A program made the position numbers and the translations under genes. This document shows, piece after piece, positions 8,916 through 52,795 of a stretch of 64,000 nucleotides of DNA (its first letter is position 1; each line of letters opens with the position of its first letter). Below the pieces are notes generated by a model, which was not told the origin of the DNA, did no database searches, and saw nothing but the letters and a program-made list of their open reading frames with translations. The stretch is from Mustelus asterias (Eukaryota). The stretch spans positions 930,001-994,000 of the forward strand of contig NW_027590144.1 in NCBI RefSeq assembly GCF_964213995.1, given 5' to 3'.

Positions 8916-11900
8916 TCCATTCGTGGGGCATGAGCGTTCCTGACTGGCCAGCACTTATTGCCCATTTTCAGTTGCCCTTGAGAAGGCGGCAGTGAGCTGC
9001 CTTCTTGAATCTCTGCAGTTCATGATCTATGTGTTGACCCACAATGCTGTTAGGGAGGGAATTCCAGGATTTTGGCCAAGCGGCCGCGAAGGAACGAAGA
9101 TATATGTCCAAGTCAGCATTGTGAGTGGCAAAGAGGGGAAATTGCAGGTGGTGGTGTTTCCATGTATCTGCTGACCTTATCCTACTAAATATATGTGGTC
9201 GCCGGTTTGAAAGATATTGTTTAAGGATCTTTGGTGAATTGCTGCCGTGCAGCTTATAGATAGTACATATACATTGCTCCGAATGATCGTCGGTACTGGA
9301 GGGAGTGGATGTTTATCGAAGTGCTGCCAATCAGTTGGGCTGCTTTTTCCTGGATAACGTCAAGCTTCTTGAGTGTTGTTGGAGCTGCACACATCAGGTA
9401 AGTGGGGAATATTCCATGACACTCCGGACTTGTGCCTTGTAGCTGGTGGATAGTCTTTGCGGAGTCACCAGGTGAGTTACTCGCCGCAGCATTCCTAGCC
9501 TCTGACCTGCTCTTGTAGCCATTGTTTTTATGTGGCGAGTCCAGTTGAATTTCTTATCAATGGTAACCCCAAGGTTTTTGACAGCGGGGGATTCAGCAGT
9601 GGTAACACCATTGAATTTCAAAGGGAGGTGATTAGAGTGTGTCTTATTGGTGATGACCATTGCCTGGCATTTGTGTGACGCGAATGTCACTTGCCACTTG
9701 TCAGGCCAAGCGTGGATATTGTCCAGATTTTGTTGCATTCGAACATTGAATGCTTCCGTATCTGAGGAGTTGAGAATGGTGCTGAAGATTGTGCAAACAT
9801 CAGCAAACTACCGCACTTCTGACCGTGTGATGGAGGGAAGAACATTGATGAAGCAGCTGAAGTAGTTGGGCGGAGGGTACTACCCTGATGGATCCCTGCG
9901 AAAATGCCCTGGAACTGAGATAACTGACCCTCCAGATCCACAACCAACTTCCTTTGTACCATGTATGAACCCCACGAGCGAAGTGTTTGCCCCCAACATC
10001 CATTGATTCCAGCTTTGCTCCGTGATGCCACACACCGTCTAATGCGGTCTTGATGTCAAGGTCTGCCACTCTCACCTCACCTCTGGGATTCAGCTCTTTC
10101 GTCCATGTTTGAATCAAACTGTCAAGAGGTCAGGAGCTCGGTGACCCTGGCGAAACCCAAATTGGGCGCCACTGCGCAGGTTACTGGTGAGCAGATGCTG
10201 CTTGACAGCACTGTTGATGACCCCTTCCATCACTTTACTGATGATGGAGAGTAGACTGATATGGGCGGTAATTGGCTGGGTTGGATTTGTCGTGCTTTTT
10301 GTGTACCGGACACACATAGGCAATTTTCCACATTTTCGGGTCGATGCCAGTATTGCAAATGTACTGGAAGAGCTTGGCTAAGGGAGCGGCAAGTTCTGTA
10401 GCACAAGTCTTCAGTACTATTGCAGGAATGTTATCTGGGCCCATTGCCTTTGCATTGTCCAGTGCCTCCAAACGTTTCTTGATATCACGTGGATTTAAGC
10501 GAATTGGCTGGAGACTGGCATCTGAGATTCTGGGGACCACTGGAGAAGGCCGAGACGCATCATCCACTCGGCTCTTCTGGCTGAAGATTGTTGCGAATTC
10601 GTCATCCTTATCTTTTACACAGATGTGCTGCACTCCTCCATCATTGAGGCTGGGGATATTTGTGGCGCCTACTCCTGCAATTATTCCTTTAATTGTCCAC
10701 CACCATTGATGACTGGACATAGAAAGACTTCAGAGCTTGGATCTGATCTGTTGATGGTTGGATTGCTTAGCTCTGTCTATCACTTGCTATTTTTGTCCTT
10801 TGGCATGCAAGTAGTCCTGTCTGATAGCTTTACAAGGTTGACACTTCATTTTTAGGTATGCCTGGGGCTGCTCCTGGCATGCCCTCCTGCACTCTCCATT
10901 GAACCAAGGTTGATCCCCTGGCTTGATTGTAATGGTTGCATGGGGAATTTGCCGGGCCATGAAGTTGCAGATTGTGCTGGAGTACGATTCCACTGCTGTT
11001 GATGGCCCACAGCGCCTCATGGGTGTCCAGTCTTGAGTTGCTAGATCAGTTCGAATTCTGTCCCATTCAGCACGGTGATAATGCCGCACAACACGATGGA
11101 CATAATTCTCAATGTGAAGGCAGTACTTCGTCTACACAAGGACTGTGCAGTGGTCACTCTTATCGATACTGTCCTGGACAGATGTACCTACAGTCGGAGG
11201 ATTGATAATGATGAGGTCAAACATGTTTTTTTTTCTTGTTGACTCCATCACTACCTGCTGCAGACCCCGTCGAGCAACTATATCCTTTAGCATCAGGCCA
11301 GCTCGATCAGTGATGCTGCTGCCGAGTAACTATTGATGGTGGACTTTGAAATCCCCCACCCAGAGTACATTTTGCGCTCTTTACCCCCTCAGTGCTTCCT
11401 CCAAATGCTGCTCAACATGGGGGAGTACTGATTTATCTTTCGGAGGACGGTACGTGGTAACCAGTAAGAGGTTTCCTTGCCCATGTTTCACCTGAAGCCA
11501 TGAGAGTTCATAGGGTCCGGAGTCAATGTTAAGGACTCCCAACACACCACCCTCCCGACTTTATACCAATGCACTTGCACCTCTGCTAGGTCTGTCCTGC
11601 CGTTGGGACGGGACATATCAGCGATGGTCATGGTGGTGTCTGCAGTGTTATCTGTTAGATATTTTTCCGTGAGAAAGTGTTTGCAAGCTTGACTGGTCTG
11701 TGAGACAGCACTCCCAATTTTGGTACGAACTCCCAGATGTTAGAAAGGAGGAATTTACAGGGTGGGGATTATTTTCCGGTGCCTAGGCCAATGCAAGGTG
11801 AGCCGTCCGGCTTCATTTCTTTGTTGAGACTTTGTAGCGATAGATACAACTGAGTGGCTTGTTTGGCCATTTCGGAGGGCAGTTAACAGTCTACAACATT

Positions 11901-12177
11901 GCTGTGACTCTGGAGTCACATGTAGGCCAAATGATGCAAGGGTGGGAGGTAAAGACGGCAGATTTCTTTCTCTGAAGGGCATTAGGGAACCAGATGGGTT
12001 TTTCTGACATTGGGCAGTAGTTTCGTGGTCACCAATAGACTCGTAATTCCAGATTTTGTTTTTATTGAATTCTAATTCCACCATCTGATTGGCGGGATTC
12101 AAACCCAGGTCTCCAGAACATGATTTGGGTTTCTGGATTAATGGTCAAGTGATAATAACTCTAGGCCATCGCCTCCC
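8916..12177 (-). mobile_element. Degenerate single-ORF APE-RT LINE (CR1/L2 group) with tRNA-derived 5' head
   Basis: Broken APE (VLWVGDF about 11345-11365) and RT (KAMGPDNIP, QGS..GP..F..FIN, FAD, QNLDNIHAW..KWQVTF); 5' end GGGAGGCGATGGCCTAG...GGGTTTGAATCCC (A/B boxes); no ORF1. Confidence 0.85.
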
Positions 12178-12358: not shown

Positions 12359-13239
12359 TCAATTAAGGGGACAAGCCAACAGATTTCTCAACTGCTCCCT
12401 GAATTTCCCCTGGGTCACTGCATAAATGAATGTGTTTGTGCAGCAACTCAACAACTGAAGCATATTTGCACTTTCGCGAAGGATGAATTTGGCGTCACTG
12501 TATCCATTGATTTTAACATCCTTTGTAAATCGGTCATAAAAGAACTGTACAACATACGCCAACCACAAGAGGATGAAGCTACCTGAAATTGCAAACAGTA
12601 AAACAATGGACTTTCTTCTGTTCTCCATCTCTTTATCGCTCTTGTTCTCTCTATTGCTTTGGACTGTGAGTCTCCTGCGGGCTCTATTGGCCACAAGGAT
12701 GTGTCTGACGGTCAACACATTGAACAGAAGAATCATAACGAAAGAGAGGCATGGTGTTAAAATACGGTCAGTCCAATCAAACGCTGTCCACAAAGTCGAA
12801 GTATAACGAATGTCCTTTTGTCGGCAATACCAGGGGACATTGTCAAATATATAAATGGGTTCGTGTATAAAGTACCAAGGAATACTTTTCAGGAAACTTA
12901 AAAAACAAACCATTCCTATAACCACAGCTGCCATTTTTTCAGTGCAATATTTTGTTTTCAGCTTCTTGTAACAAATGGCCACAAATCGATCGAAGGTAAA
13001 AGCGACCGTTAACCAGACAGAACTGTCTCTTGCTGCATGAATTAAGGTGATGCTAAGACTGCAAACCGGAGTGATGGACAGAAAACTGCTGGGGAAATAA
13101 ATGCCAGGAATCCGGTTTATTATCACTGCGGTGACAATAACGAGCAGGTCAGTCACTGCCATGAAGACCAGATACCGAGTGATACACCTGGAGAGACCGC
13201 ACCTTCCTCGGTTCAGGATCACAATAGCCACCAAATTAA
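12359..13239 (-). CDS. GPR139-like class A GPCR, exon 2 (TM1 end to TM7)
   Basis: Acceptor ttcttgattacag ends at 13240; NLVAIVIL, MAVTDL, FTFDRFVAIC (DRY variant), IPWYF, CCTNTFIY (NPxxY variant). The ORF-track N-terminus MASVWSVFC... is intronic. Confidence 0.9.
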
Positions 13240-15084
13240 CTGTAATCAAGAAAAAGAGAGAGAGAGAGACTTTACAAAATACACTCCAAACAGAAGCCAT
13301 GTGCTTGTCTGGATTAGAGGTATCTCATAGTCGTGATGCTTGAAATGATTAAACAGAGACCATTGCAGGAAAACAAAGATATTTCAATGAATTAACATAA
13401 GTTCATTAAATATGCTTACGCATCAATATGTCAACACAGGCGATTATAGACTGGTGAAGAAAATATGTTAAAAAAACCATTTCATTGATATTTAAGATAT
13501 CTAGTTAACAGAACAGAATCAACAGAATGGCAACTGGAATTAAATTCAGAAGCACATTATAACAATTATAATAACGAATGGAACAAGCATGAGGGATACT
13601 GCAAAGGTACGATTCCAGAAACTAATATGAAGAGACCAGAGCCGTTTACATTGTGATGGCAATAGACCTTCCTTTTGGATGTGTCTTCATAGGCTTTATG
13701 GAGAAGATTGAAATACAAACCTCAGTGAGAATTACTAGACCTTCTTCAATACAATCCTTAGCTTCCAACCGAAATGCCGAAACGGAACATGACTTAGTAG
13801 CTTCTCATGTAAGAACTAAAGATCCTGCAACATAGCAATCTCTCAAAGCTTCCCAATATCGACCAAAAATATATATTCATGTCTTCAAGTAGGATTTTAA
13901 TTAATTAAGATGGATCTAAAAGAACGATGAACCGAAGTTACATATGACCGCTGGAAATAAATGCAGGATTTTTAACATGGGAACTTTCCGAGATTATATC
14001 CATAATCACGAGCTCAGAGGGACGGAAACTTCGACAAATCTTTCAGGTTTGTGCTTCCAAACAGAAGGTTGAGTGGACCGGCTGAAGTACTGACCATGAA
14101 CTGTCCTTGCGATAAAAGTAAGAAAATAGTCTCATGTTTGTTTCATCAATTTGAGAGAGGTTGATTGAAACAATTAGAGCGGGAAAATTCAAGGACGGCG
14201 CAAGCATCACAAAGACTATCCAAAGTGAATTTATTTCCAGCTGAAAATCCGAACAGTTGATAACTTTCAAAGAGAACAGAGATCAAAGCGGACTAAAGAA
14301 AGCAGAACATCGGGATGAATATTCCAGTAAATATGTGAATGCTGACACCTTCGGAGCTCAGATGGAGCAAAACACTATTAACTGCAATGTACCTGCAAAA
14401 CGTTCAACCCATAAAAGCAAAGGATAGTTTCATGTCTTACTTCATCAATGATAATTCGTTCATTCATTATGTATTTAGCTAAAACTTTGGTGATGAAATG
14501 TTTGGTTAATAAATATATGAAGGCGTATTTAGGAACCAAGACTCTAACTTAGTTGCATACTAAACCTAGCATATATGGTTCGGTACAAACAATGCCAATT
14601 TCATGTCATTTTGACAGCAACATGTATTATTTGTTTGTTCCTTTATTTCCATGCAATCTCTACAATGATGCCAATAGTTAATGCCGCTTTTCCTTTCTTC
14701 TGGCCTGTGCGGCTCTCAGTTAGACAGCTGGTCGCGTTCTGCAACAGGGATCACTCACAATATTTCGGACAGATTCACTTTAACGTTGGGCTGTATTTTA
14801 AATGACCAGTGGTGTTTCTATATGTCACAATGCCTATCTGCTGGAGGTCATGGCATTGCATTTCACAGACGCTGAACATTCTAAACACACAGTTTCATGA
14901 AACGGGAATTCAAAACCACAAGTCAGATAAACTATTCTCTTACCAATATACTCATGCACATTCTGCCTCAATTTGCCTCCCCGCTTCCATGTATGTTATT
15001 TCATTGGTTCACAAAACGCTTGGGCTGGAATGGTGGAGCGGGCTTGAGGGGCCAAATGTCAGAATAATTATATTATTTCCTATT

Positions 15085-20861: not shown

Positions 20862-23059
20862 AGTAAGAAGTCTCACAACGCCAGGTTAAAGTCCATCAGG
20901 TTTATTTGGTAGCACAAGTTTTCGGAGTGTCGCTCCTTCTTCAGATGAATGAAGAGGTGTGTTCACAAACAGGGCGTACATAGATTCAGACTCAATGTAC
21001 AAGATGATGATTGGAATGCGAGTCTTTACAGGTAATCAAGTCTTAAAGGTACAGACAATGCGAGTGTAGAGAGGGTTAAGCACAGGTTAAAGAGGTGTCT
21101 TGTCTCCAGCCAGGATAGGTAATGAGATTTTGCAAGCCCAGGAAAGTCGTGGGAGTTACAGGTAGTGTGACATGAGCCCAATATCCCGGTTGAGGCCGCC
21201 ATCATGTGCGCGGAACTTGGTATCAGTTTTTGCTCGGCCATTCTGCGTTGTAATCTGTCGTAAAGGCCGCCTTGGAGAACGCTTACCCAAAGATCAGAGG
21301 CCGAATGTCCGTGACTGCTGAAGTGTTCCTTGACAGGAAGAGAACCGTCCTGCCTGGTGATTGTCGAACAGTGTTCATTCACCCGTTGTCGTTTGCGTCT
21401 GCATGGTCTCGCCAATGTATCATGCATCGGGACATCCTTTCCTGCAGCCTATCAGGTCGACAATTTTGCTGAGCCGCAAGAGAATGCACCGTGTACCTGG
21501 TGGATAGTGTCCTCACGTGAGATGATGGCATCCGTGTCGATGATCCGGCACGTCTTGCATAGGTTGCTGTGGCAGAGTTGTGTGGTGTTGTGGCCACTGT
21601 TCTCCTGAAGGCTGAGTAGTTTGCTGCGGACAGTGGTCAGTTTCAGGTTGTGCGGTTGTTTGAAGGCAGGAAGTGGGGGTGTGGCGATGGCCTTGGCGAG
21701 ATGTTCGTCTTCATCGATGACATGTTGAAGGCTCCGGAGAAGATGTCGTAGCTTCTCCGCTCCGGGGAAGTACTGGACGACGAAGGGTGCTCTGTCAAAC
21801 GTGTCCCATGTTTGTCTTCTGAGGAGGTTGTTGCTGTTTTTCGGTGTGGCGCGTCGGAACTTTCGATCGATGAGTCGAGCACCATATCCTGTTCTTATGA
21901 GAGCTTTCAGCGTCTGTAGGTGTCTGTTCCGATTCCCCTCATCTGAGCAGATCCTGTGTATACGGAAGGCTTGTCCGTAGGGGATGGCTTCTGTAACGAG
22001 TTTAGGGTGGAAGCTGGAGAAGTGGAGCATCGTGATGTTATCCGAGGGCTTGCGGTACAGGCAAGTGCTGAGGTGACCGTCCTTAATGGAGATGCGTGTG
22101 CCCAAGAATGCAACCGATTCCGGAGAGTCGTCCATGGTGAGTCTGATGGTGGGGTGGAACTTGTTGATGTCATCATATAGTTGTTTCGGTGGCTGTTCGC
22201 CATGAGTCCAAAGGAAGAAAATGTCATCGATGTATCTAGTGTATAGCATCGGTTGAAGGTCCTGTGCGGTGAAGAAGTCTTGTTCGAACCCGTGCATGAA
22301 GATGTTGGCATATTGAGGTGCGAATTTGGTCCCCATGGCTGTTTCGTGTGTCTGGATGAAGAACTGGTTGTTGAAGGTGAAGACGTTGCGGTCCAGTATG
22401 AAGCGGATGAGATGTAGATCTGGAGATTGGCAGTTGACGGCGTTAAGTACAGCGTCACCTTGCTACATTGCGAGAACGTGCAGAGGCTCCGAAAATGGAT
22501 GAATGAAAACCGCTCGACAATCATCTGGCAGGAGTGTTCACTTCCTGTCGGGGAACACTTCAGCAGTCACGGTCATTCAGCCTCTGATCTTCGGGTAAGC
22601 GTTCTCCAGGGCGGCCTTCACGACACAACAACGCAGAACCGCCGAGCAAAAACTGATAGCCAATTTCCGCACATATGAAGACGGCCTCAACCGGGATCCT
22701 GGGTTTATGTTACATTTTCTGTGAACCCCCACGACTTGCCTGGTTTTGCAAAATCTCACTAACTGTCCTGGCTGCAGACAACACACACTTCTTTAACCTG
22801 TGCTTAACCCTCTCTCCGCTCACATTGTTTGTACCTTTAAGACTTGATTACCTGCAAAGACTCGCATTCCAACCATTACCTTGTAAGTTGAGTCTGTATC
22901 TATGTATGCCCTGTTTCTGAACACAACTCCTCGCTCACCGAGGAAGGAGAGACATTGCAAAAGCTTGTGCTATCAAATAAACCTGTTGGACATTAACCCA
23001 GTGTTGTGAGACTTCTTACCGTGCTTACCCCAGTCCAACGCTGGCAGCTCCACGTTATG
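20862..23059 (-). mobile_element. Penelope-like element (RT + GIY-YIG) with inverted 3' copy and 11-bp TSD
   Basis: RT MGTKFAPQYANIFM...RYIDD (21452-22336); GIY-YIG C-terminal part (RQRVNEH...PVKEHF); 22455-23020 is an inverted copy of the 3' end; gccgccaccag at 20851-20861 and 23060-23070. Confidence 0.92.
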
Positions 23060-24570: not shown

Positions 24571-25254
24571 ACTCCACCGTGTCTGGAATATTGACGTTTC
24601 AATATGCGTGGTCGTAAATTCCATGGGTCGGGAGAAAGAGATGAAAACACATCCAGAAACCGAAAATTTAAACAGGTTTAAATGAAGAGAATTGAAAATA
24701 TAGTCGTAAAATGAAGTTAACATGCAAAATCGGAATGAGTGAAAGATCCAGAATAGAGGTACAATAAGAATGCGTAAAGAGCACAGAAGATTTTGAATCA
24801 ATGGAAAGAGAAGAGGAGGAAAATAAAAAATAATGAGTGTGATGCATAGAGTTAAAAATCTGGTGAAATCATAACTGAAATGACTCAGAAATGATGTAAA
24901 ACGGCGTTTGTTTTAACTTCAGTCAAACTTCCTTGATAGTTCGACAGTTTATGGTTTGATAACCAGCTCGTGAAGATCTGTTATTGGATCTTGCCTCATA
25001 AATAAATTTACACCCTGCTCACTGTTCTGACAGTGTCAATTCTTCCGGCTGGAGATGCCCTGAGAGGGCACTGTGGTCCCACGTTCTTCCCTGTTATCAA
25101 CTGAAAATTATCGCTAAACAACTGGCGGTAACGCAGCCAGATGCAATCCCGAAAACATTATGTTCTCTCTGACCCACGATGTCTGCCCTGAGATATTTGA
25201 AATATTTTCCTGTTTCACCGCTTGAATCGGCAGTGGCCCGGGGTTCTTTTTTTA

Positions 25255-25630
25255 AGTCATTTGTGGGATATGGACGTCGCTGGCCGGCCAGCATTTATTG
25301 CCCATCCCTCGTTGCCCTTGAACTGTGTGGCTTGCTAGTCCATTACAGCGGGCAGCTGAGAGTCAACCACATTGCTTTCGCTCTGGAATCCCATGTAGAC
25401 CAGACCAGGTAAGGACGGTAGATTTCTTTCCCTCAAGGCCATTTGTGAACCAAATGGGGTTTTTCATCAATCGAAGATGGTTTCATGGTCATCAGTAGAT
25501 TCTAAATTGCAGATCTGTTTATTGAATTTAGATTACACCATCTACCGTGACGGGATTCGAATCCGCGTCCCCAGACATTAGCTGGTTTTCTGGATTAGTT
25601 TTCTGGTGATAATGTCACCAGGCCTCCCAT
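25255..25630 (-). mobile_element. tRNA-headed SINE, internal-deletion relative of the 8916-12177 LINE
   Basis: About 65 bp match the LINE 3' end, joined at ttgcccttg|aactg.gtggcttg to the LINE 5' head and core. Confidence 0.85.
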
Positions 25631-31871: not shown

Positions 31872-33691
31872 GCCTTTCACTGCAGAGTGCAGCTGCTGTC
31901 TGTTGGGGTCTGTGGAGGATTGTAGTAGATGCAGCCGCAATGTGCAGCGAAAGGAAACCAAACTCACCTCGAATGAAACTGTTCCCAGGAGAGACTGAGA
32001 AAACAAACTTCAGAATTCAATCAGACAAACAGATCATCGCAGAATCACATTAGAAGACACCCGTTCGAAATCCCGCCCTTAATAACTTGTTCTCTTCCCC
32101 CGGGATGCTCTTGCCTCACCTCCGTGTCTGTCTCTGGTTCTCTGAGGCCAGTTGGTGGTGATCTGGGGTTGATATTGAAAGAGAAGTGTCCGAGCCTGGC
32201 TACAGGCAGTGCCCTGACAGGGGAATCGCCGGACTTTCAGAGACTGGGGAGGAGGAAGTGGTGGCCGGGGAAGGTAAGTCTGGTCTGTAAATTATCATCA
32301 GAAAATTCCGGATTGTTCGTGTTGACAAGAACCACACCAGCTTCCAGGAAACATTCTGAAGCTCAGTGCTCACTGAGGAAAATCTCCTTGGGGTTGTTTT
32401 AAAGATGATAGTCACCCCTTTGCGAAATCTATTCAGTGTTTATAAGTTTTCTTTGATCCAGCAACGCACTCTGATTAAATAAATCGTGTTAACAGGCCGT
32501 GGTCTAAGGCTCCACGAAACTGCGAGAGAGATGGAGAGGGTTGTTCAATGTCACAGACAGTCCCGGAAAACACATCGAAGGAAAAAGAAGTAAATTCAAG
32601 TAAGGAAGTAAATTTCTGAATGCTGATTTCAGCATAACTGCACTGGATTTAACCAGTACAATTCCGTACGTTTTCCTGAATTTTGTTGTTATTGTAAAGT
32701 TCCAGGTGACTCTGCATTTGGAAGCGGAATTTTTACTTCTGTTTAGCAGTGAGAGCGCTGTCTGGATACTGGGAGTATGTTTTTTTTTGTGTTCTGGATC
32801 TGTTACTTCTCTGTAGCAGTGTTGGCTCCATAGCACAACAATGCACGGCGATGTCAGAGAGAACTTCTCCTGTGATATTTCAAGGGACAACTTTGTTTCC
32901 TTGTGAAAATCAGCAGCGAGTGTAACTCCGAGAGCTGTTTGCCTTCAGTAAATGTGTCAGAGCTCCCGCAGATACTGGAGGAACAGGTCAAAGTTGGGAC
33001 ACTGTGGTTGTCGTATGTCGGCAGTCCAGTGTTAATGAGGCGCTGTTCTTCTAGAACTTTGCGCTAACAATTCAGAATTTCCTGACGATAAACTACAGAC
33101 CAGGGTTACATCCACCCCGGACCTCCCAGTCCGACCAAAAGGACTTAGAAGCTTTGGAGAGAGTTCAAAGAATGTTCCCCAGGATGCTGCACGATCCCGA
33201 GGGCGTTGGCTATGAGGAGTATGAATAGCCTAGGACTGTTTTTACTGAAATACAGAGGCTGAGGGAAGACCTGGATTGGATCTACAACATTATTGGAGGC
33301 ACAGACAGGGTGGACGTGTCAATTACAAGGGGAGCACTGGTTCAAGGGGAAGTTTGAGGGAGATTTGTTCCCAGGAGCAGGCTGAGGGTAAGAGAGTGGG
33401 TTTTCTGACTGTAATTAATTATTTATTTTTTCAGTTAATTTTGGGTTTAAAATCGGAGGTTTTTTTCAAAACCGGAAGTCGGGCCAGGAGTGGCCTGGGG
33501 AAGTTTTTGGAGGGTTTAAAAGCGCACCAAGGTATACAGCGGGCAGCATCGTAGCGGGCAGCAGAGTGAGTGGGAAGTTCAGTGAGCTGTCAGGGCTTTG
33601 GCTCACAGGGCTTGGACGAGCAGGGGTGAGTTTTTGTTTCCTTACACTCTTATTAACTTTTCACTGTCTTACTTGACATAAAGTGTCCAGT

Positions 33692-34621
33692 ATGAGTGTG
33701 AAACCAGTGTGTTGTTCCCAGTGTAGGATGTGGGAGGTCCTGGAGGCATCTGGCCTCCCGGACATCCACATCTGTGAGGGGTGTGTCGAGCTGCGGTTCC
33801 TGAGGGACCGTGTTAGGGAGCTGGAACTGCAGCTCGAGGATCTTAGGCTGATGAGGGAGAATGAGGAGGTGATAGACAAGAGCTATCATCAGGTGGTCAC
33901 ACCAGGGCCACGGGAGGAGGCCAAGTGGGTGACGGCCAGGAAGGGTAAGGCTAGGGTGGTTGAGAGCACCCCGGTGGATTTGCCCCTGCACAACAAGTAC
34001 TCCTGCTTGAGTACTGCTGGGGGGGACAGCCCGCCTGGGGGAAGCAGCAGTGGCCGTGTCTCCGCAGTGGAGTCCAGCCCTGTAACTCAGAGGGCTAAGG
34101 AAAAGAGGAGGAAGGCGGTATTAATCGTGGACTCGATGGTGAAGGGAACAGACAGGCGTTTCTGCGGAGGTAGGCGAGATTCTCGCATGGTGGTCTGCCT
34201 CCCTGGGGCCGGGATCCAGGATGTCGCTAGTCGCGTCCCGGAAATCCTGAGGTGGGAGAGAGAGAAGCCTGAGGTAGCGGTACATATTGGTACCGCTGAT
34301 GTGGGTAGGAAGGGAGAAGGGGTCATGAAAAGGGAGTACAGGGAATTAGGGAGACAGCTGAGAAAGAGGAAAGCAAAGGTAGTAATCTCAGGATTACTGC
34401 CTGTGCCACGGGAAGGTGAGGGCAGGAATGGAGTGAGGTGGAGGATGCATGTGTGGCTGAGGGACTGGTGCAGGGGGCAGGGATTCAGGTTCCTGGATCA
34501 TTGGGACCTCTTTAGGGGCAGGGGTGATCTGTATACAAAAAACGGGTGGAACTTGAATCACACGGGGACCAATATCCTGGCCAGTAGGATGGCAAAGGCT
34601 ACTGGGGAGAATTTAAACTAG
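33692..34621 (+). CDS. CR1 ORF1 (Cys knuckle, coiled coil, esterase-like fold)
   Basis: MSVKPVCCSQC...CEGC; VCLPGA; VISGLLP; homologous to copy 1 ORF1. Confidence 0.9.
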   Translation: MSVKPVCCSQCRMWEVLEASGLPDIHICEGCVELRFLRDRVRELELQLEDLRLMRENEEVIDKSYHQVVTPGPREEAKWVTARKGKARVVESTPVDLPLHNKYSCLSTAGGDSPPGGSSSGRVSAVESSPVTQRAKEKRRKAVLIVDSMVKGTDRRFCGGRRDSRMVVCLPGAGIQDVASRVPEILRWEREKPEVAVHIGTADVGRKGEGVMKREYRELGRQLRKRKAKVVISGLLPVPREGEGRNGVRWRMHVWLRDWCRGQGFRFLDHWDLFRGRGDLYTKNGWNLNHTGTNILASRMAKATGENLN

Positions 34622-34626
34622 ATAGG

Positions 34627-37600
34627 TTGGGGGGAGGGGAGCTAGAAGAGTTGACTAGGATCAAGGAACTAATTGATGGGGGGGAGGATGCAGGGGTAAG
34701 GGGAAGTACAAAAATAATGGTAGAGGAGAGGGTGCAAGTGAATGAAGGCGGTAATTTAGGTAAGGGAGGAGAGGGAGTGGGTGTTCGCGACTCATCAAAG
34801 CGGGTCCAGATAAAAGCTGGAGTAAGGACACTTTGCCTGAATGCACGAAGCATTCGGAACAAGGTAAATGAGTTGATGGTGCAAATCAGCACAAGTGGGT
34901 ACGATCTGGTGGCCATTACAGAAACGTGGCTGAAAGGTGACCAGAACTGGGAGATGAATATCCAGGGGTATCAGGCGTTTAGGAAGGATAGACAGGAAGG
35001 AAAAGGTGGTGGGGTCGCGCTATTAATAAGAGATAATATCAGGGTAGTACTGAGGGATGGCATAGGCTCTGAGGAACAAAACGTGGAATCATTATGGGTA
35101 GAGATGAGGAATAGTAGGGGGAGAAAGACACTAGTAGGTGTGGTATATAGGCCTCCAAATAATAATGTTGAGGTAGGGAGGGCTATAAACAAGCAGATAA
35201 GGGATGCGTGTAAAAACGGAACGGCAATAATCATGGGGGACTTCAACATGCACATTGACTGGCAGACTCAAGTCGGTAAGGGTGGAATGGAGGAAGAGTT
35301 CTTAGAATGCTGTCGGGATAGTTTCCTTGAACAGCATGTTACGGAACCGACGAGGGAACGAGCTATTTTGGATCTGGTATTGTGTAACGAGGTAGGTAGA
35401 ATTAAGGATCTTATTGTGAAGGACCCTCTTGGGTCTAGTGACCACAATATGGTCGAATTTCTGATTCAGATGGAAGAGGAGAAAGTTTGGTCCCAAACCA
35501 GTGTCCTCTGTTTGAACAGAGGGAAATATGATAGGATGAGGGATGAATTGGCTAAGGTAGACTGGGAGAGCAGGCTGGCAGGTAGGATAGCTGAGGAACA
35601 GTGGAGGATTTTTAAGGAGATCCTTCTCAGTTCTCAGCAAAAACATATTCCAGCAAAAAACAAGGATTGTAAGAAAAGGGAGAACCAGCCGTGGATAACG
35701 AAGGAAATAAAGGAGAGTATTAAAATAAAAACAGCTGCGTACAGAGTGGCCAAAAATAGTGGAGAAACAAGTGATTGGGAAAAATTTCAGAAACAACAAA
35801 GAGAGACTAAGAAAGCGATAAAGAAAGGAAGGATAGACTATGAAGCTAGGCTAGCAATTAATATAAAAAATGATAGTAAAAGTTTTTATAAATATATAAA
35901 AAGGAATAGAGTGGCTAGAGTGAATGTTGGACCCTTGGAGGACGAGAGGGGGGAGTTAATAGTGGGAAATGAGGATATGGCTGAGTCTTTAAATAAGTTT
36001 TTTGTGTCGGTCTTCACGGTGGAGGACACAAATAGTTTGCCAAACATTAACGATAGAGGGTTGGCAGCAGGAGAAATACTTAATACAATTAATGTTACCA
36101 GAGAGGCAGTGCTGGGTAGACTAATGGGACTGAAGGTGGACAAGTCCCCGGGTCCGGATGGAATGCATCCCAGGGTATTGAAAGAAATGTCAGAGGTAAT
36201 AGTGGATGCGTTAGTGATTATTTATCAAAACTCGTTGCATTCTGGGGTAGTGCCGGTTGATTGGAAAACGGCTAATGTTACGCCGCTGTTTAAAAAAGGA
36301 AGGAGACAAAAGGCGGGTAACTATAGGCCGGTCAGCTTAACATCTGCAGTAGGGAAAATGCTGGAATCCATTATTAAAGAGGAGATAGCAGGGCATCTGG
36401 ATAGAAATGATTCGATCAATCAGACGCAGCATGGATTCATGAGGGGAAAGGCGTGCTTGACGCACATGTTGGATTTTTATGAAGATGTGACTAGGGCGGT
36501 TGATGGAGGAGAACCGGTGGATGCGGTGTTTTTGGATTTCCAAAAGGCGTTTGATAAGGTGCCCCATAAAAGGCTGCTGAAGAAGATTAGGGCACACGGA
36601 GTTGGGTGTAGTGTGTTAAAGTGGATTGGGGACTGGCTATCCGACAGGAAGCAAATAGTCGGAATAAATGGGTGTTTTTCCGGTTGGAGGAAGGTAACTA
36701 GTGGCGTGCCGCAGGGATCGGTACTCGGGCCGCAACTGTTTACCATTTATATGGATGATCTGGAGGAGGGGACGGACTGTAGGGTAACGAAGTTTGCAGA
36801 CGACACAAAGATAAGTGGAAAAGTGAATCGTGTGGAGGACGGAGAAGATCTGCAGAGAGATTTGGACAGGCTGAGTGAGTGGGCGAGGATATGGCAAATG
36901 GAGTATAACGTTGAGAAATGCGAGGTTATACACTTTGGAGGAAATAATAACAAAAGGGATTATTATCTCAATGGAAACAAATTAAAACATGCTACCGTGC
37001 AAAGGGACCTGGGGGTCCTTGTGCATGAGACGCAAAAGCCCAGTCTGCAGGTACAACAGGTGATCAAGAAGGCAAATGGGATGTTGGCCTATATCGCGAG
37101 GGGGATAGAATATAAAAGCAGGGATGTCTTGATGCACCTGTACAGGGCATTGGTGAGGCCGCAGCTGGAATACTGTGTGCAGTATTGGTCCCCTTATATG
37201 AGGAAGGATATATTGGCATTGGAGGGAGTGCAGAGAAGGTTCACCAGGTTGATACCGGAGATGAGGGGTTTGGATTATGAGGAGAGGCTGAGGAGATTGG
37301 GTTTGTCCTCGTTGGAGTTTAGAAGGATGAGGGGGGATCTTATGGAGACTTATAAGATAATGCGGGGGCTGGATAGGGTGGAGGCGGAGAGATTCTTTCC
37401 ACTTAGTAAGGAAGTTAAAACTAGAGGACACAGCCTCAAAATAAAGGGGGGTCGGTTTAAGACAGAGTTGAGGAGGAACTTCTTCTCCCAGAGGGTGGTG
37501 AATCTCTGGAATTCTCTGCCCACTGAGGTGGTGGAGGCTACCTCGCTGAATATGTTTAAAGCGCGGATGGATGGATTCCTGATCGGTAAGGGAATTAAGG

Positions 37601-37632
37601 GTTATGGGGATCAGGCGGGTAAGTGGTACTGA
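34627..37632 (+). CDS. CR1 ORF2: APE endonuclease + reverse transcriptase
   Basis: 1001-aa open frame; NARS, ITETW, GDFN, SDH, DFQKAFD, GVPQGS, FADD. Confidence 0.96.
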   Translation: MGGGELEELTRIKELIDGGEDAGVRGSTKIMVEERVQVNEGGNLGKGGEGVGVRDSSKRVQIKAGVRTLCLNARSIRNKVNELMVQISTSGYDLVAITETWLKGDQNWEMNIQGYQAFRKDRQEGKGGGVALLIRDNIRVVLRDGIGSEEQNVESLWVEMRNSRGRKTLVGVVYRPPNNNVEVGRAINKQIRDACKNGTAIIMGDFNMHIDWQTQVGKGGMEEEFLECCRDSFLEQHVTEPTRERAILDLVLCNEVGRIKDLIVKDPLGSSDHNMVEFLIQMEEEKVWSQTSVLCLNRGKYDRMRDELAKVDWESRLAGRIAEEQWRIFKEILLSSQQKHIPAKNKDCKKRENQPWITKEIKESIKIKTAAYRVAKNSGETSDWEKFQKQQRETKKAIKKGRIDYEARLAINIKNDSKSFYKYIKRNRVARVNVGPLEDERGELIVGNEDMAESLNKFFVSVFTVEDTNSLPNINDRGLAAGEILNTINVTREAVLGRLMGLKVDKSPGPDGMHPRVLKEMSEVIVDALVIIYQNSLHSGVVPVDWKTANVTPLFKKGRRQKAGNYRPVSLTSAVGKMLESIIKEEIAGHLDRNDSINQTQHGFMRGKACLTHMLDFYEDVTRAVDGGEPVDAVFLDFQKAFDKVPHKRLLKKIRAHGVGCSVLKWIGDWLSDRKQIVGINGCFSGWRKVTSGVPQGSVLGPQLFTIYMDDLEEGTDCRVTKFADDTKISGKVNRVEDGEDLQRDLDRLSEWARIWQMEYNVEKCEVIHFGGNNNKRDYYLNGNKLKHATVQRDLGVLVHETQKPSLQVQQVIKKANGMLAYIARGIEYKSRDVLMHLYRALVRPQLEYCVQYWSPYMRKDILALEGVQRRFTRLIPEMRGLDYEERLRRLGLSSLEFRRMRGDLMETYKIMRGLDRVEAERFFPLSKEVKTRGHSLKIKGGRFKTELRRNFFSQRVVNLWNSLPTEVVEATSLNMFKARMDGFLIGKGIKGYGDQAGKWY

Positions 37633-41111: not shown

Positions 41112-41471
41112 TATTCATTTGTGGGACATGGGCGTCGCTGACTGGCCAGCATTTACTGCCTATCCCTAGTTGCCCGATGGAAGTTGAGAGTCAATCACTT
41201 TGCTCTGATTCTGGAGTCCCATGTTGGCCAGACCAGGTAAGGATGGCAGATTTCCTTCCCTAAAGAACACTAGTGAACCAGATGGGGTTATCAGACAATC
41301 GGAAATGGTTTAATAGTCATCAGTAGGTTCTTAATTCCCGATATTCTTTTATAAAGTTTAATTTAATCCAGATTTTTTTCATTGAATTCTAATTCCATCA
41401 CCTGCCTTGGCGGGATTAGCTGAATTTCTGGATCAAGAGTCCAGCGGTAACACCACTCGGCCATCGCCTCC
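41112..41471 (-). mobile_element. tRNA-headed SINE related to the 8916-12177 LINE
   Basis: Head GGAGGCGATGGCCGAGTGG (A box), core ggcagatttccttccctaaag, LINE-type 3' end. Confidence 0.85.
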
Positions 41472-46340: not shown

Positions 46341-47690
46341 ATGATGGGGCAAAATGTAGAGGAAGATTTGAGCTGTATCTATCCCCGTGCTGTACCTGTC
46401 CTGGGTGTGTTTGATGGGGACAGTATGGAGGGAGCTTTACTCTGTATCTATCCCCGTGCTGTACCTGTCCTGGGTGTGTTTGATGGGGACAGTGGTGAGG
46501 GAGCTTCACTCCGGATCTAAACCCGTGCTGTACATGTCCTGGGAGTGTTTGATGGGGATAGTGTAGAGGGAGCTTTACTCTGTATCTAACCCTGTGCTGT
46601 ATATGTCCTGGGAGTGTTTGATGAGGACAGTGAAGTGGGCGCTTTACTCTGTATCTAACCACTTGCTGTATCTCTCCTGGGAGTGTTTGATGGGGACAGT
46701 GTCGAGGGAGCTTCACTCTGTATCTCACCCCGTGCTGTATCTGTTCTGGGAGTGTTTGATGGGGACAGTGTAGAGGGAGATTTACTCTGTATCTAATCCC
46801 GTGCTGTACCTGTCCTTGGTTTGTCTGATGGGGATATTGTAGAGGGAGCTTTACTCTGTATCTCACCCCGTGCTGTATCTGTTCTTGGAGTGTTTGATGG
46901 GGACAGTGCAGAGGGAGCTTTACTCTGTATCTAAGCCATGCTGTCCCTGTTCTGGGAGTGTTTGATGGGGACAGTATCGAAGGAGCTTTACTCTGTATCT
47001 AACCCGTGCTGTACCTGTCCTGGGCGAGTTTGTTGGGGACAGTGCAGAGGGTGCTTTACTCTATATCTAACCCCGTGCTGTATCTGTTCTGGGACTGTTT
47101 GATGGGGACAGTGTTAAGTGAGCGTTACTCTGTATCTAACCCCGTGCTGTACCTGTCCTGGGAGTGTTTGATGGGGACAGAGTAGAGGGAGCTTTACACT
47201 GTATCTAACCCCGTGCTGTATCTGTCCTGGGTGTGTTGGATGGGGACAGTGTAAAGGGAGCTTTACTCTGTATCGAACCCCGTGCTGTATCTGTCCTGGG
47301 AGTGTTTGATGGGGGCAGGCTAGAAGGAACTTTACTCTGTATCTAACTCCGTGCTGTATCTGTCCTGGGAGTGTTTGATGGGGACAGTGTAGAGGAAGCT
47401 TTACTCTGTACCTAACCCCGTGCTGTACCTGTCCTGGGAGTGTTTGATGGGGACAGTGGAGAGGGAGCTTTACTCTGTATCGAACCCCATGCTGTATTTG
47501 TCCTGGGAGTGTTTGATGGGGGCAGTCTAGAAGGAACTTTACTCTGTATCTAACTCTGTGCTGTACCTGTCCTGGGAGTGTTTGATGGGGGACAGTGTAG
47601 AGGGAGCTTTACTCTGTATGTACCCCCGTGCTGTATCTGTCCTGGGGGTGTTTGATGGGGACAGTGTAGAGGGAGGTTTTCTCTGCATCG
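46340..47690. repeat. 69-bp tandem satellite, about 19-20 units
   Basis: Unit ctgtatctaaccccgtgctgtacctgtcctgggagtgtttgatggggacagtgtagagggagctttact; period from 46382 to 46451. Confidence 0.95.
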
Positions 47691-48163
47691 AAACACTTGA
47701 TGAATCCACTCTTCGATCGATTGAATGTGAGAACAAAGAGGGATCTAATTTTACCCAGTCATTGGATGGAGCTCTTGGGGCTAAAGTGGGAATAGGATGT
47801 TGAATTTGATGATCAGCCATGATCATAATGAATGTTGGAGCAGGCTGGAAGGGCCGAATGGCCTCCTCCTGCTTCTAGTTTGTGTGTTTATAAATGATGA
47901 AAAGGCAGCAGCAGTGGGAGTTCAATATGTGTGGATATTTCACAGCTGGATTCACACAATACACACGGCAATGTCGCTGATATTTTGGAAATGCTGCAAA
48001 TGTTGTCAAACACAATACGCAGGGGACCTTAATGTTGCAATGTTACTCCCAAACTGTCATCCCACAGGGTCAACATTTCTGTACAATGTGAGTGAATCGT
48101 AAGTTAATATAGTTCAGTTTCAATGTTTAAAATAACCAGTCACTTTTCTGTGGCTGCTTTGGG

Positions 48164-50233: not shown

Positions 50234-52795
50234 TCCAGCCTGTCCAGCACTGTCAGAATTTTATACCTTTCAATTAGATCCCCGCTCACTCTTCTACATT
50301 CCAGTGAATACAGGCCCAGCCGACCCAATCTCCCCTCAGACATCAATGCTGCCATCCCAGGAATCAGTCTGGTGAACATTCACTGCTCTCCCTCTGTGGC
50401 AAGTACATCCTTCCTCAGATAAGGAGAGGAACACTGTACACAAGACTCCAGGTGTGGTCTCACCGAGGGTCTGTCCAGCTGCAGTAAGACATCCTTGCTC
50501 TTCTACTCGAACCCTCTTGCAATGAAGGCCAACATCCCATTCGTCTTCCTAACTACTTGCTGTAGCTGCATGCTTGCTTTCAGTGACTGGTGTTCTCAGA
50601 TACCCAGGTCCCTTTGTACAACATTTCCCAATCTATCACCATTCAACTAATACTCTGCCATTCTCTTCCTCCGTCCAAAGTGGATAACGTCACATTTATC
50701 CACATTATTCTGCATCTGCCATGTATTTCCCCACTCACTCAACTTGTCTAAATCACCCCGAAGCCTCTTAACATCCTTCCCATCACTCACATTCCCACCA
50801 AGTTTCGTCTCATCAGCAAACTTGAGAATATTACGTTTGGTTCCCTCATCCAAATCACTGATGTGTTTTGTGAATAGCTGGGACCCAAGAACTGACCCCT
50901 GCGGGACCCCACTCGTCACTGCCTGCTACTTAGAAAAAGATTCATTTCTTCCTACTCACTGTTCCCTGTCTGTGAACCAATTCTCAATCCGTGCCATTAT
51001 ATTCCCACAATCCCATGCACTTTAATTTAGCGCACTAACCTCCTATGTGGCACCGCTCCATCCATTTGTGTACAGTGTAGATTTACCAGAATGATACCAG
51101 GACAGCAAGGGTGAAATCACAAGGTGGTAAAATAACACAAACGAGGATTGTATTCCCCGGTTTTTCGAATGATCAGCGGCTGATTATTTGAAAGGTTTCA
51201 GGAGAATAATGGAAACTGGTTGAACCATAGAATCCCAGTGCAGAAGGAGGCCATTCAGCCCATCGAGTCTGCACCGAATCTCTGACAGAGTATCTGAGCC
51301 AAACCCTTTCCCCTCCCCATTCCCCATAGCCCCACACATTTACCATGGCCAATCCACCTAATCTAAACATCTTTGGATTCTAAGGGGCAATTGAGCATGG
51401 CCAGTCCACCTAACCTCGACATCTTTGGACTGTGGGAGGAAACTGGAACACCCGGAGGAAAGCCATGCAGAATCGGGGAGAACGTGGAAATTCTACACAG
51501 ACAGTCACCCAAGGCTGGAATTGAACCCGAGCCCCTGGCACTGTGAGGCAGCAGTGCTAACCACTGTGCCACCGTGCCTATGGGCCTTCCCCAGCTCCTC
51601 CTGTCCCACCATCCTCCGATATCTGTTTTCCTTTCATTCTGGTTCCCAGAACAACCCCAATTTTAATAGTTTCACATTGTGAGTGAGNNNNNNNNNNNNN
51701 NNNNNNNNNNNNNNNNNNNNNNNNNNNNNNNNNNNNNNNNNNNNNNNNNNNNNNNNNNNNNNNNNNNNNNNNNNNNNNNNNNNNNNNNNNNNNNNNNNNN
51801 NNNNNNNNNNNNNNNNNNNTCAGTGAGTTTGTGTGTGTTTCACTATCTTCCTGTCTCTCAGTCCCCCAGTCCCAGAATCTGCTTCTCTTTACACAGATGC
51901 TGCCTGTCCTGCTCAGTATTCCGGCATTGACTATTTCACAATCTGAGGAGTTGTGAATGCTGCGATCATCAGCGAACATCTCACCTATGGAGGGAAGGTC
52001 AGTGATGGAGCAGCTGAAGATGGTTGGGGCCTCGGACACTCACCCTGAGGAACTCCTGCAGTGATGTCCCGGGACTGAGTGGATCGGCTTTGAGATAATC
52101 GGCACATTGGGGGAAAGCTTGGAAAGCAGAGGATGCTGATTTAAGGTAAATGGCGACAGCGGCAACATGAGGCAATATCTGTGGCTTTGGAGTGATCCTT
52201 GTTGTACCCCACTATTAGCTGCTTGCCCACCTGAATATCTCACTGTTACTCTCTGCATTACTATCTCATCCCTATCTCTCAGTGACTCTGCCTCTCCCCA
52301 TCTCTCCGGGGAAATTATAATGGGGAGCAAAAAAATGGCAGAAGAATTGAACATATACTTTGGTTCTGTCTTCACAAAAGAGGCACAGATAACCTGGCAG
52401 AAATGTTAGGGAACCAATGGTTTAGTGAGAGTGTGGAATTGAATTGAAGGAAATCGGTATTAGTAAGAAAATAGTGCTGGGGGAATGAATGGGGTTAAAG
52501 GCTGACAAAGCCCCAGGGCCTGATAATCTACATCCCAGAGTATTAAAGGAAGCGGCGCTGGAAATATTGGATGCATTGCTGGTCATCTTCCAAAATTCTA
52601 TAGACTCTGGAGCAGTTCCTACAGATTGGGGGGTGGCAAATGTAACCCCACTATTTAAAATCATCTTTTCACTTGCGTGTAATTTATCACAGAACACGGG
52701 CAGCATGGGCTTATCGAGAATGACGGGATAGTGTTGGGGTGGAGAAGTTATTCCTTCAAGTGGAAATCAGTGTCGTTTTGAAATGTGTTGAGGGT
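50234..52795 (+). repeat. Segmental duplication unit A (CR1 fragment, SINE, LINE RT piece, CR1 piece)
   Basis: Near-identical to 57186-59710. Confidence 0.9.

Follow-up and report, generated by a model that had tools for sequence, protein, structure and literature searches.

The element in the window

The window analyzed here is a 64,000-nucleotide (nt) stretch of DNA from Mustelus asterias (contig NW_027590144.1, positions 930,001 to 994,000). It contains, on its minus strand, a full-length dead copy of a Zenon long interspersed nuclear element (LINE) that begins with a tRNA-like head. An earlier note on this DNA had described a LINE lacking the first open reading frame (ORF1), with a tRNA-derived RNA polymerase III (Pol III) head and almost no Pol III terminators, and had suggested that its family was transcribed end to end by Pol III and translated without a cap. 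The parts of the copy are listed below, where the family majority is the majority sequence of the family described in the next section, SINE stands for short interspersed nuclear element, UTR for untranslated region, and T3, T4 and T5 are runs of three, four and five T on the sense strand.

8905..12177, minus: tRNA-headed Zenon LINE, full length and dead; similarity to the family majority 85.8%
12084..12177, minus: tRNA-like head with a long variable arm (ARAGORN at a relaxed threshold and fold, both on the family majority)
12158..12168, minus: A box, two changes from the family majority
12095..12105, minus: B box, differing from the family majority by one CpG-type change
11848..12083, minus: body common to the LINE and two SINE types, which leave the LINE sequence after majority nt 289 (window 11875) and after nt 316 (window 11848)
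11814..11816, minus: conserved AUG 3' of an A-rich stretch (family majority; by eye in published Zenon 5' ends)
11140..11744, minus: APE endonuclease domain, broken in this copy (motif positions; PF14529/PF03372 on open stretches of other copies)
9570..10345, minus: reverse transcriptase (RT) domain, broken in this copy (motif positions; PF00078 on other copies)
9901..9904, minus: copy-specific T4, absent from the family majority (run scan and family majority)
8916..8970, minus: stop codon and short 3' UTR, common to SINE tails (the majority has AATAAA at window 8959-8954)
8905..8915, minus: T5-A6 tail, probably derived from an A run by conversion once the copy was in place

The head, body, APE, RT and tail follow one another in the order the earlier note had read, with the APE domain starting at 11744 (it had said near 11750), and the A and B boxes lie where it had placed them, at 12168-12158 and 12105-12095. 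The end of the element had been put at 8916. The true end is 8905, so the T5 of the tail lay just outside. Inside those narrower limits the count of about 20 T3 runs and one T4 stands (21 exact T3 and the single T4 at 9904-9901), but a further T5 occupies 8915-8911 in the tail. The copy is indeed dead, with 11 insertions or deletions, 8 of them frame-shifting, and 7 stops. It opens with three G at its 5' end, four G being the usual family start. Both boxes are slightly decayed in this copy, and the family majority fits the usual A/B box pattern. No tRNA was called on the window copy of the head, and a Pfam scan of eight window fragments gave no match.

The T4 had been judged copy-specific from two paralogous RT fragments in the window. 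The judgment holds, as the majority has no T4 there, but the two fragments, 74% alike to the family, are not independent because they are copies of one duplicated unit (98-99% alike). This unit, at window 50234-52795 and 57186-59710, carries the old RT fragment and has been amplified, with copies on numerous small contigs; a search with the unit gave near-identical sequence in 40 of 40 scored matches (the best 40 of 1,330 candidates). Two fragments were tried as an older subfamily for an independent test and set aside, the one at 52 kb being this one amplified unit and the one at locus L031 belonging to the same family.

The family majority and its classification

The majority was built from 84 aligned pieces at 64 loci (median 93.1% alike), and 29 additional loci altered one synonymous base of it. 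It is 3,293 nt long and holds a single stop-free frame of 979 codons from nt 293, all other frames being shorter than 120 codons. Pfam APE and RVT_1 match the open stretches of single copies, and the layout leaves no space for an ORF1. In the majority the head has a tRNA-like shape with a long variable arm, nt 1-120 are more stable in fold than shuffled versions (z-score -5.5), and an Rfam search for a ribozyme or known RNA family returned chance-level matches only.

The single APE and RT frame without ORF1 and the poly-A tail are those of Zenon. Canonical CR1 has an esterase ORF1, or has lost it within an esterase lineage, and a microsatellite tail; the element departs from it in the missing ORF1, the A tail and a protein identity of 26% to the CR1s of the window, which have a GDSL ORF1. 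It shares with tRNA-derived SINEs (SINE2) a 5' head with A and B boxes, but at 3.3 kb and 979 codons it is neither short nor non-coding, whereas its derivatives of 360-390 nt are both. The RT falls apart from the window's CR1s in a quick tree, together with unnamed proteins (no named Zenon protein was included). Elasmobranch Zenon consensuses (RhiTyp_, CarCar_, ScyCan_, HypSab_ and SquAca_Zenon) were published by Stuart et al. 2026 (PMC13343379), whose main text gives a missing ORF1 and a poly-A tail as traits of Zenon. In that paper Zenon is confined to elasmobranchs, coelacanth and hagfish. The published consensuses resemble the window family in length (2886-3314 vs 3293 nt), in lacking ORF1 and in the poly-A tail. 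The 5' 400 nt of RhiTyp_Zenon-1 are nearly the same by eye, and exact 11-nt words of the window family occur in the elasmobranch consensuses. On sequence, the window element is most probably a member of elasmobranch Zenon without a difference in kind. Absence of ORF1 is already known from Zenon and does not argue for Pol III.

The head belongs to the family

A query of head plus APE against the 3.68-Gb genome of the same species gave 41 matches in the best 40 of 11,078 candidates, and is biased towards headed copies. The fair test used APE only (best 40 of 3,545 candidates), which left 30 loci including the window and its duplicate. Among the 28 others, 16 reach the first base of the element, 10 end in the 5' part shared with SINEs and 2 end below it. 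The linkage of head and frame that the earlier note had proposed therefore recurs in independent insertions, 16 of 28 loci extending to the same 5' base. Neither an ORF1 nor an alternative 5' UTR, the other arrangements it had considered, is present in the family, and the 5' flanks of 25 of these 28 loci contained no second 5' UTR, only another short repeat at a varying distance. That most copies lack the head is literally so (158 exact 24-nt words across the head-LINE junction vs 4,758 at the 3' end), but this is ordinary 5' truncation; copies selected by their 3' part are mostly 5'-truncated. Unlike in a typical APE LINE insertion, there are no target site duplications to speak of (4 of 54 complete insertions vs a shuffled mean of 1.8 and maximum of 6).

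The simplest alternative is chance, namely a SINE that inserted beside a LINE in the window copy, with low T content accounting for the few T runs. Headed SINEs are abundant (22 of 28 loci selected by the head), and the sense strand is only 20% T. However, the same junction occurs in dozens of unrelated loci, with the 158 exact junction words given above, and the same head stands in seven published consensuses. The tRNA-like head belongs to the LINE family. The T content is taken up below.

The LINE copy of the window is found again with its flanks, at 99.5%, on another contig (L069, G000:C138:829084-834584), either as a segmental duplicate or as a second haplotype. Single LINE copies with large inner deletions were also seen, at L127:1501-2663 (nt 325-2444) and L308:1306-3210 (nt 966-2161); deletions of this sort could give rise to new SINEs.

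Partner SINEs and the 5' end

The 28 loci selected by the head comprise the 22 SINEs, made of LINE nt 1-289 and the last 70 nt, 5 copies that continue into the ORF and 1 inner-deleted LINE. A second SINE type joins LINE nt 316 to the tail (27 loci aligned). Both types are about 360-390 nt long and start at the same base as the LINE; full-length LINE copies and SINEs all begin at one base, 10 nt 5' of the A box. Compared with the LINE majority, the heads of the two SINE types have 5 and 7 differences, variants that are seen among LINE copies as well. A four-G start is seen in 13 of 33 LINE and 14 of 34 SINE copies (P=0.65), and an extra, cap-derived G on the LINE was rejected on this comparison. 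In assembled contigs of four runs from other organisms the head, the ORF start and both SINE junctions are present, contigs of this kind being silent on start, strand and level. The window itself holds two partner SINEs.

25247..25624, minus: type B SINE composed of LINE nt 11-316 and nt 3219-3293
41112..41471, minus: older, type A-like SINE composed of LINE nt 2-289 and nt 3223-3286

Avoidance of T clusters

Runs of three or more in the majority comprise 5 T3 and no T4 or longer (T4+), vs 50 of A, 45 of C and 40 of G. Synonymous shuffles, in which the protein and the codon usage were fixed, gave 12.1 T3+ runs for the ORF where 3 are observed (P=0.0002). The earlier note had looked to T4 in such controls. 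The shortage of T4+ alone is not significant (0 vs 2.1 expected, P=0.094), whereas T3 runs and degenerate terminators are clearly short. The sequences T3VT2, T2VT3, T3VT, TVT3 and T2VT2 were tested as human Pol III terminators (PMC3141230), and each of these degenerate sequences has four T within five bases. In the ORF, 5-nt windows with at least four T number 0 vs 11.6 expected, and 0 of 2000 synonymous shuffles were as low; a CpG-aware shuffle gave 0 vs 7.9 (P=0.0012). There is no window with four T in five in the whole 3.29-kb majority, which lacks T4, T3VT, TVT3 and T2VT2. Runs and windows of A, C and G were normal in the same shuffle tests. NTN codons ending in T are absent before a T (0 of 26) and make up 45 of 176 otherwise. 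CpG words are the most depleted overall, and TTT is the most depleted other triplet. Phenylalanine makes up 1.9% of the family ORF, below all 45 homologues (2.8-7.3%).

The controls were 64 ORFs, namely the ORF2s of the two intact CR1s in the window and 62 APE-RT ORFs taken from metagenome contigs; of 80 metagenome loci, 62 had an open frame of 400 codons and the other 18 were left out of the ORF test. The ratio of observed to expected T3 was 0.66-1.17 in the controls vs 0.25 in the family ORF. Every control (64 of 64) has at least 2 T4+ runs and at least 5.0 four-T windows per kb vs 0 in the family. The two CR1 ORF2s, which the earlier note had said to be rich in such runs, do hold 14 and 7. 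Control ORFs with 16.5-20.5% T still hold 2-5 T4+ runs, and the shuffles keep composition. Chance juxtaposition with low T content is thus refuted by the recurrent junctions, the published consensuses, the controls and the shuffles, and is scarcely conceivable. Dead copies hold 30 T4+ runs in 114.6 kb (45 pieces), and the number rises with divergence (rho 0.34, P=0.024). Dead copies gain such runs, so mutation does not forbid them. Subfamily variants outside CpG number 43, too few for a test of selection among them. No match to the tRNA head was found in the 80 metagenome loci, and no pair of A and B boxes upstream of the 62 ORFs. Terminator-like T clusters are absent from the family beyond the codon-shuffled expectation and beyond the 64 control LINE ORFs.

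The translation start

The first in-frame methionine of the 979-codon frame is residue 295. An AUG at majority nt 348, 3' of the A-rich stretch, opens a frame of 36 codons that overlaps the start of APE out of frame, and a -1 shift is needed to join the two. Of the 7 published 5' ends of elasmobranch Zenons, 6 show the same AUG when read by eye. An in-frame AUG masked by an error in the majority was considered and rejected: the distance from AUG to the APE asparagine is 95 nt in 28 of 63 copies, and 96, which would be in frame, in 1. R2 is a LINE without an AUG. R2 and L1Tc are single-ORF elements for which translation of uncapped RNA through a 5' region resembling internal ribosome entry sites (IRESs) has been proposed; L1Tc is described as having uncapped RNA with a proposed IRES (PMC3383444). 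Their 5' ends are made by an HDV-like ribozyme in a host transcript, unlike those of the window family, which has no Rfam ribozyme match.

The 3' tail

A short A tail of 3-10 nt ends 63 of the 84 ends scored, and AATAAA sits 39 nt 5' of it in the majority. The AATAAA does not decide the polymerase, because polyadenylation occurs for some Pol III SINE RNAs (PMC8466645). Two to six T precede the A run in 27 of the 63 tails, and exact T4 tails number 540 genome-wide. These were considered as remnants of a terminator, a reading that was set aside, as the combined length of T and A stays at about 9-10, which fits an A-to-T conversion after insertion. An inner A run shows the same change in 17 of 91 cases, which is rarer than in tails (P=0.002). 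The conversion of T-A(n) to T(n)-A(n) palindromes with unchanged total length in many copies (for example window 8905-8915 and locus L062) is a repeated multi-base mutation.

Probable transcription by Pol III and its alternatives

In the active ancestor, Pol III probably transcribed the whole element from one end to the other, and the RNA would then have been translated without a cap. Pol III is the best explanation because the head and the start in common with SINEs are combined with a strand purged of the Pol III terminator set. The head would probably have been captured from a SINE. TFIIIC would bind the A and B boxes and Pol III would read the whole element, and selection on source copies would have removed terminator-like T clusters, both at synonymous sites and through seemingly lower phenylalanine. 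Without a terminator of its own, the RNA may run on through the short A tail and stop at a T run of the flanking DNA, as Alu RNA does, or may be cut at AATAAA. Ribosomes might enter without a cap at the conserved AUG and then shift by -1 to the APE frame, or might start at a non-AUG codon, and this is the weakest step of the model. The protein would copy its own RNA by target-primed reverse transcription, which is known for LINEs and leaves many 5'-truncated copies, and would also mobilise the SINEs sharing both ends. The fullest version of this account would have the family, since before the split of sharks and rays, as an autonomous 3.3-kb mRNA made by Pol III, purged of terminators at a cost in phenylalanine, translated cap-free through an out-of-frame AUG and recoding, and giving rise to SINEs by deletion. 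This version is tentative, and we lean slightly against its holding in every part.

Several points weigh against Pol III. The majority is one estimate, from copies that are 5-14% diverged. Besides the non-significant shortage of T4+ alone, TA dinucleotides are depleted as strongly as TT, and T3, which is depleted too, is treated as no terminator by itself (PMC3141230). One control, L219, comes near the family ORF by z-score (-3.04 vs -3.27) but has a ratio of 0.80. Among headless relatives with DNA, even the closest are 33-38% alike, too distant to tie the onset of T-avoidance to the head. Neither a canonical slippery heptamer nor marked structure was found at the proposed -1 shift site. The AATAAA and A tail are laid out as in an mRNA of RNA polymerase II (Pol II). 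Lastly, known Pol III retroelements are 100-1263 nt long and are thought to be limited by the processivity of Pol III (PMC10886601).

A different explanation accepts the captured SINE head but has the element transcribed by Pol II, whether by read-through or from a promoter within or close to the head, with U clusters avoided on account of splice acceptors, U-rich cleavage elements, RNA sensing or RT pausing. We regard this as rather unlikely, although it accounts for the AATAAA 39 nt before the poly-A tail. LINEs are generally transcribed by Pol II (PMC10886601, PMC5786205), moth Zenons are described without a Pol III promoter (PMC6740152), the tRNA-like stretch that RTE-1_DAn contains carries no Pol III claim where it is described (PMC5786205), and the lack of ORF1 and the poly-A are general Zenon traits. 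Several observations do not fit. First, U clusters are not avoided by other LINEs here or elsewhere (64 of 64 controls), and the missing motifs are exactly the Pol III terminator set. Secondly, sharks and a ray have retained the boxes although the sequence between the two varies (by eye), and the LINE has no additional 5' G relative to the SINE. Third, an AATAAA at nt 113 would risk early cleavage of the transcript. Lastly, scanning from a cap would encounter eight out-of-frame or closed AUGs before APE.

Pol III may also make only the RNA that is copied, the protein coming from other, capped transcripts such as Pol II read-through of some copies, so that the element would be a giant SINE. Terminator avoidance would then be explained without cap-independent translation, and no start mechanism was found that would speak for the latter. 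However, the absent in-frame AUG is equally a problem for a capped RNA, and an open frame of 979 codons would be kept most easily if the copied RNA were also the translated one. We consider this division of labour improbable.

Comparison with known elements

The build of the element is real and unusual, and its head, terminator-free strand and absent in-frame start codon are undescribed in the main text of PMC13343379, in which the words 'tRNA', 'polymerase' and 'promoter' do not occur. Over the first 400 nt, all seven elasmobranch Zenon consensuses of its supplement begin with the same head and body. The B-box words occur in six of the seven and in none of the other consensus 5' ends (about 500 in all), and by eye the boxes are constant from sharks to a ray whereas the intervening bases change. 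Two hagfish Zenons and one coelacanth Zenon, in contrast, start without the head and are T-rich over these 400 nt. The literature searched, outside which lay Repbase, Dfam, subscription papers and some supplements, gave no report of a Pol III-transcribed autonomous LINE or of the head.

The body is presumably the Deu domain of SacSINE1. The tRNA-Deu SINEs are reported from sharks, skate, elephant shark and coelacanth (PMC5499810). SacSINE1 and LmeSINE1 have, as do the window SINEs, a tRNA head with A and B boxes, a conserved body and a short LINE-type tail, and occur in sharks and skate (PMC5499810, PMC4824008, PMC3747384). They are non-coding, and their published partners are L2-2_CM or 'CR1-4_DR-like', whereas the window SINEs have a Zenon tail and share their whole 5' part with the LINE. 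If the window SINEs are SacSINE1, the head would be older than the headed LINE and would have been captured from a SINE, and new SINEs would then have been cut from the LINE or have taken its tail.

The lepidopteran Zenon (PMC6740152) is also a 3.3-kb element with a single ORF that repeatedly yields short elements from its two ends. Its SIDE, Persaeus, is described without tRNA homology and without a Pol III promoter, unlike the window SINEs. RTE-1_DAn (PMC5786205), a coding RTE LINE with a tRNA-like sequence, is a structural precedent from another clade, and its description makes no claim of Pol III use or terminator avoidance. BovB, with its SINE pieces, would be a further coding LINE of this sort from another clade. 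The TRIMp3 elements Cassandra, Helenus and Ajax (PMC10886601) are also retroelements outside the SINEs whose Pol III promoter is of small-RNA type, as proposed here, but they are non-coding LTR elements of at most 1263 nt, unlike a 3.3-kb coding LINE.

In the textbook division, LINEs are transcribed by Pol II and coding, and SINEs are transcribed by Pol III and non-coding. If Pol III did transcribe the family, a 3.3-kb coding Pol III RNA would break this division. It would be a natural protein-coding Pol III gene of a vertebrate and would test the limits of length and translatability of Pol III transcripts. The family would also provide an evolved list of the T clusters that vertebrate Pol III tolerates (isolated T3 at five places, no four in five) and a two-way route between SINE and LINE, with the head taken from a SINE and new SINEs cut from the LINE.

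Other features of the window and related sequences

An intact CR1 occupies 827-4678 on the minus strand, with an esterase-like ORF1 of 326 amino acids (aa) and an ORF2 of 956 aa. A stretch of 2,784 nt is 100% identical at 40 of 40 places (the best 40 scored) on many large contigs, and the family of this CR1 is probably active now, judging by such identity. A second intact CR1, of another subfamily, lies at 33677-37632 on the plus strand (GDSL ORF1 of 314 aa, ORF2 of 1014 aa), and a CR1 3' fragment stands just past the tail of the Zenon LINE at 8583-8832 on the plus strand. About 180 nt upstream of the LINE head and on the same strand ends an intronless frame of 321 aa for a G protein-coupled receptor of the rhodopsin family (12359-13324, minus; 7tm_1, E 7e-21). 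Two adjoining tRNA-like genes at 5749-5821 and 5956-6027 (minus) are mutually similar and were called Asp(gtc) and Gly(gcc). A tandem array with a period of about 69 nt fills 46342-47706. A frame of 336 aa at 21452-22462 (minus) has a weak RT match (E 4e-6) that is not of CR1 or Zenon type, and we take it to be Penelope-like. Lastly, in P0027, a shark protein annotated as anoctamin-7-like, a stretch that is 66% alike to a quarter of the query is a piece of Zenon, either exonised or mis-annotated.

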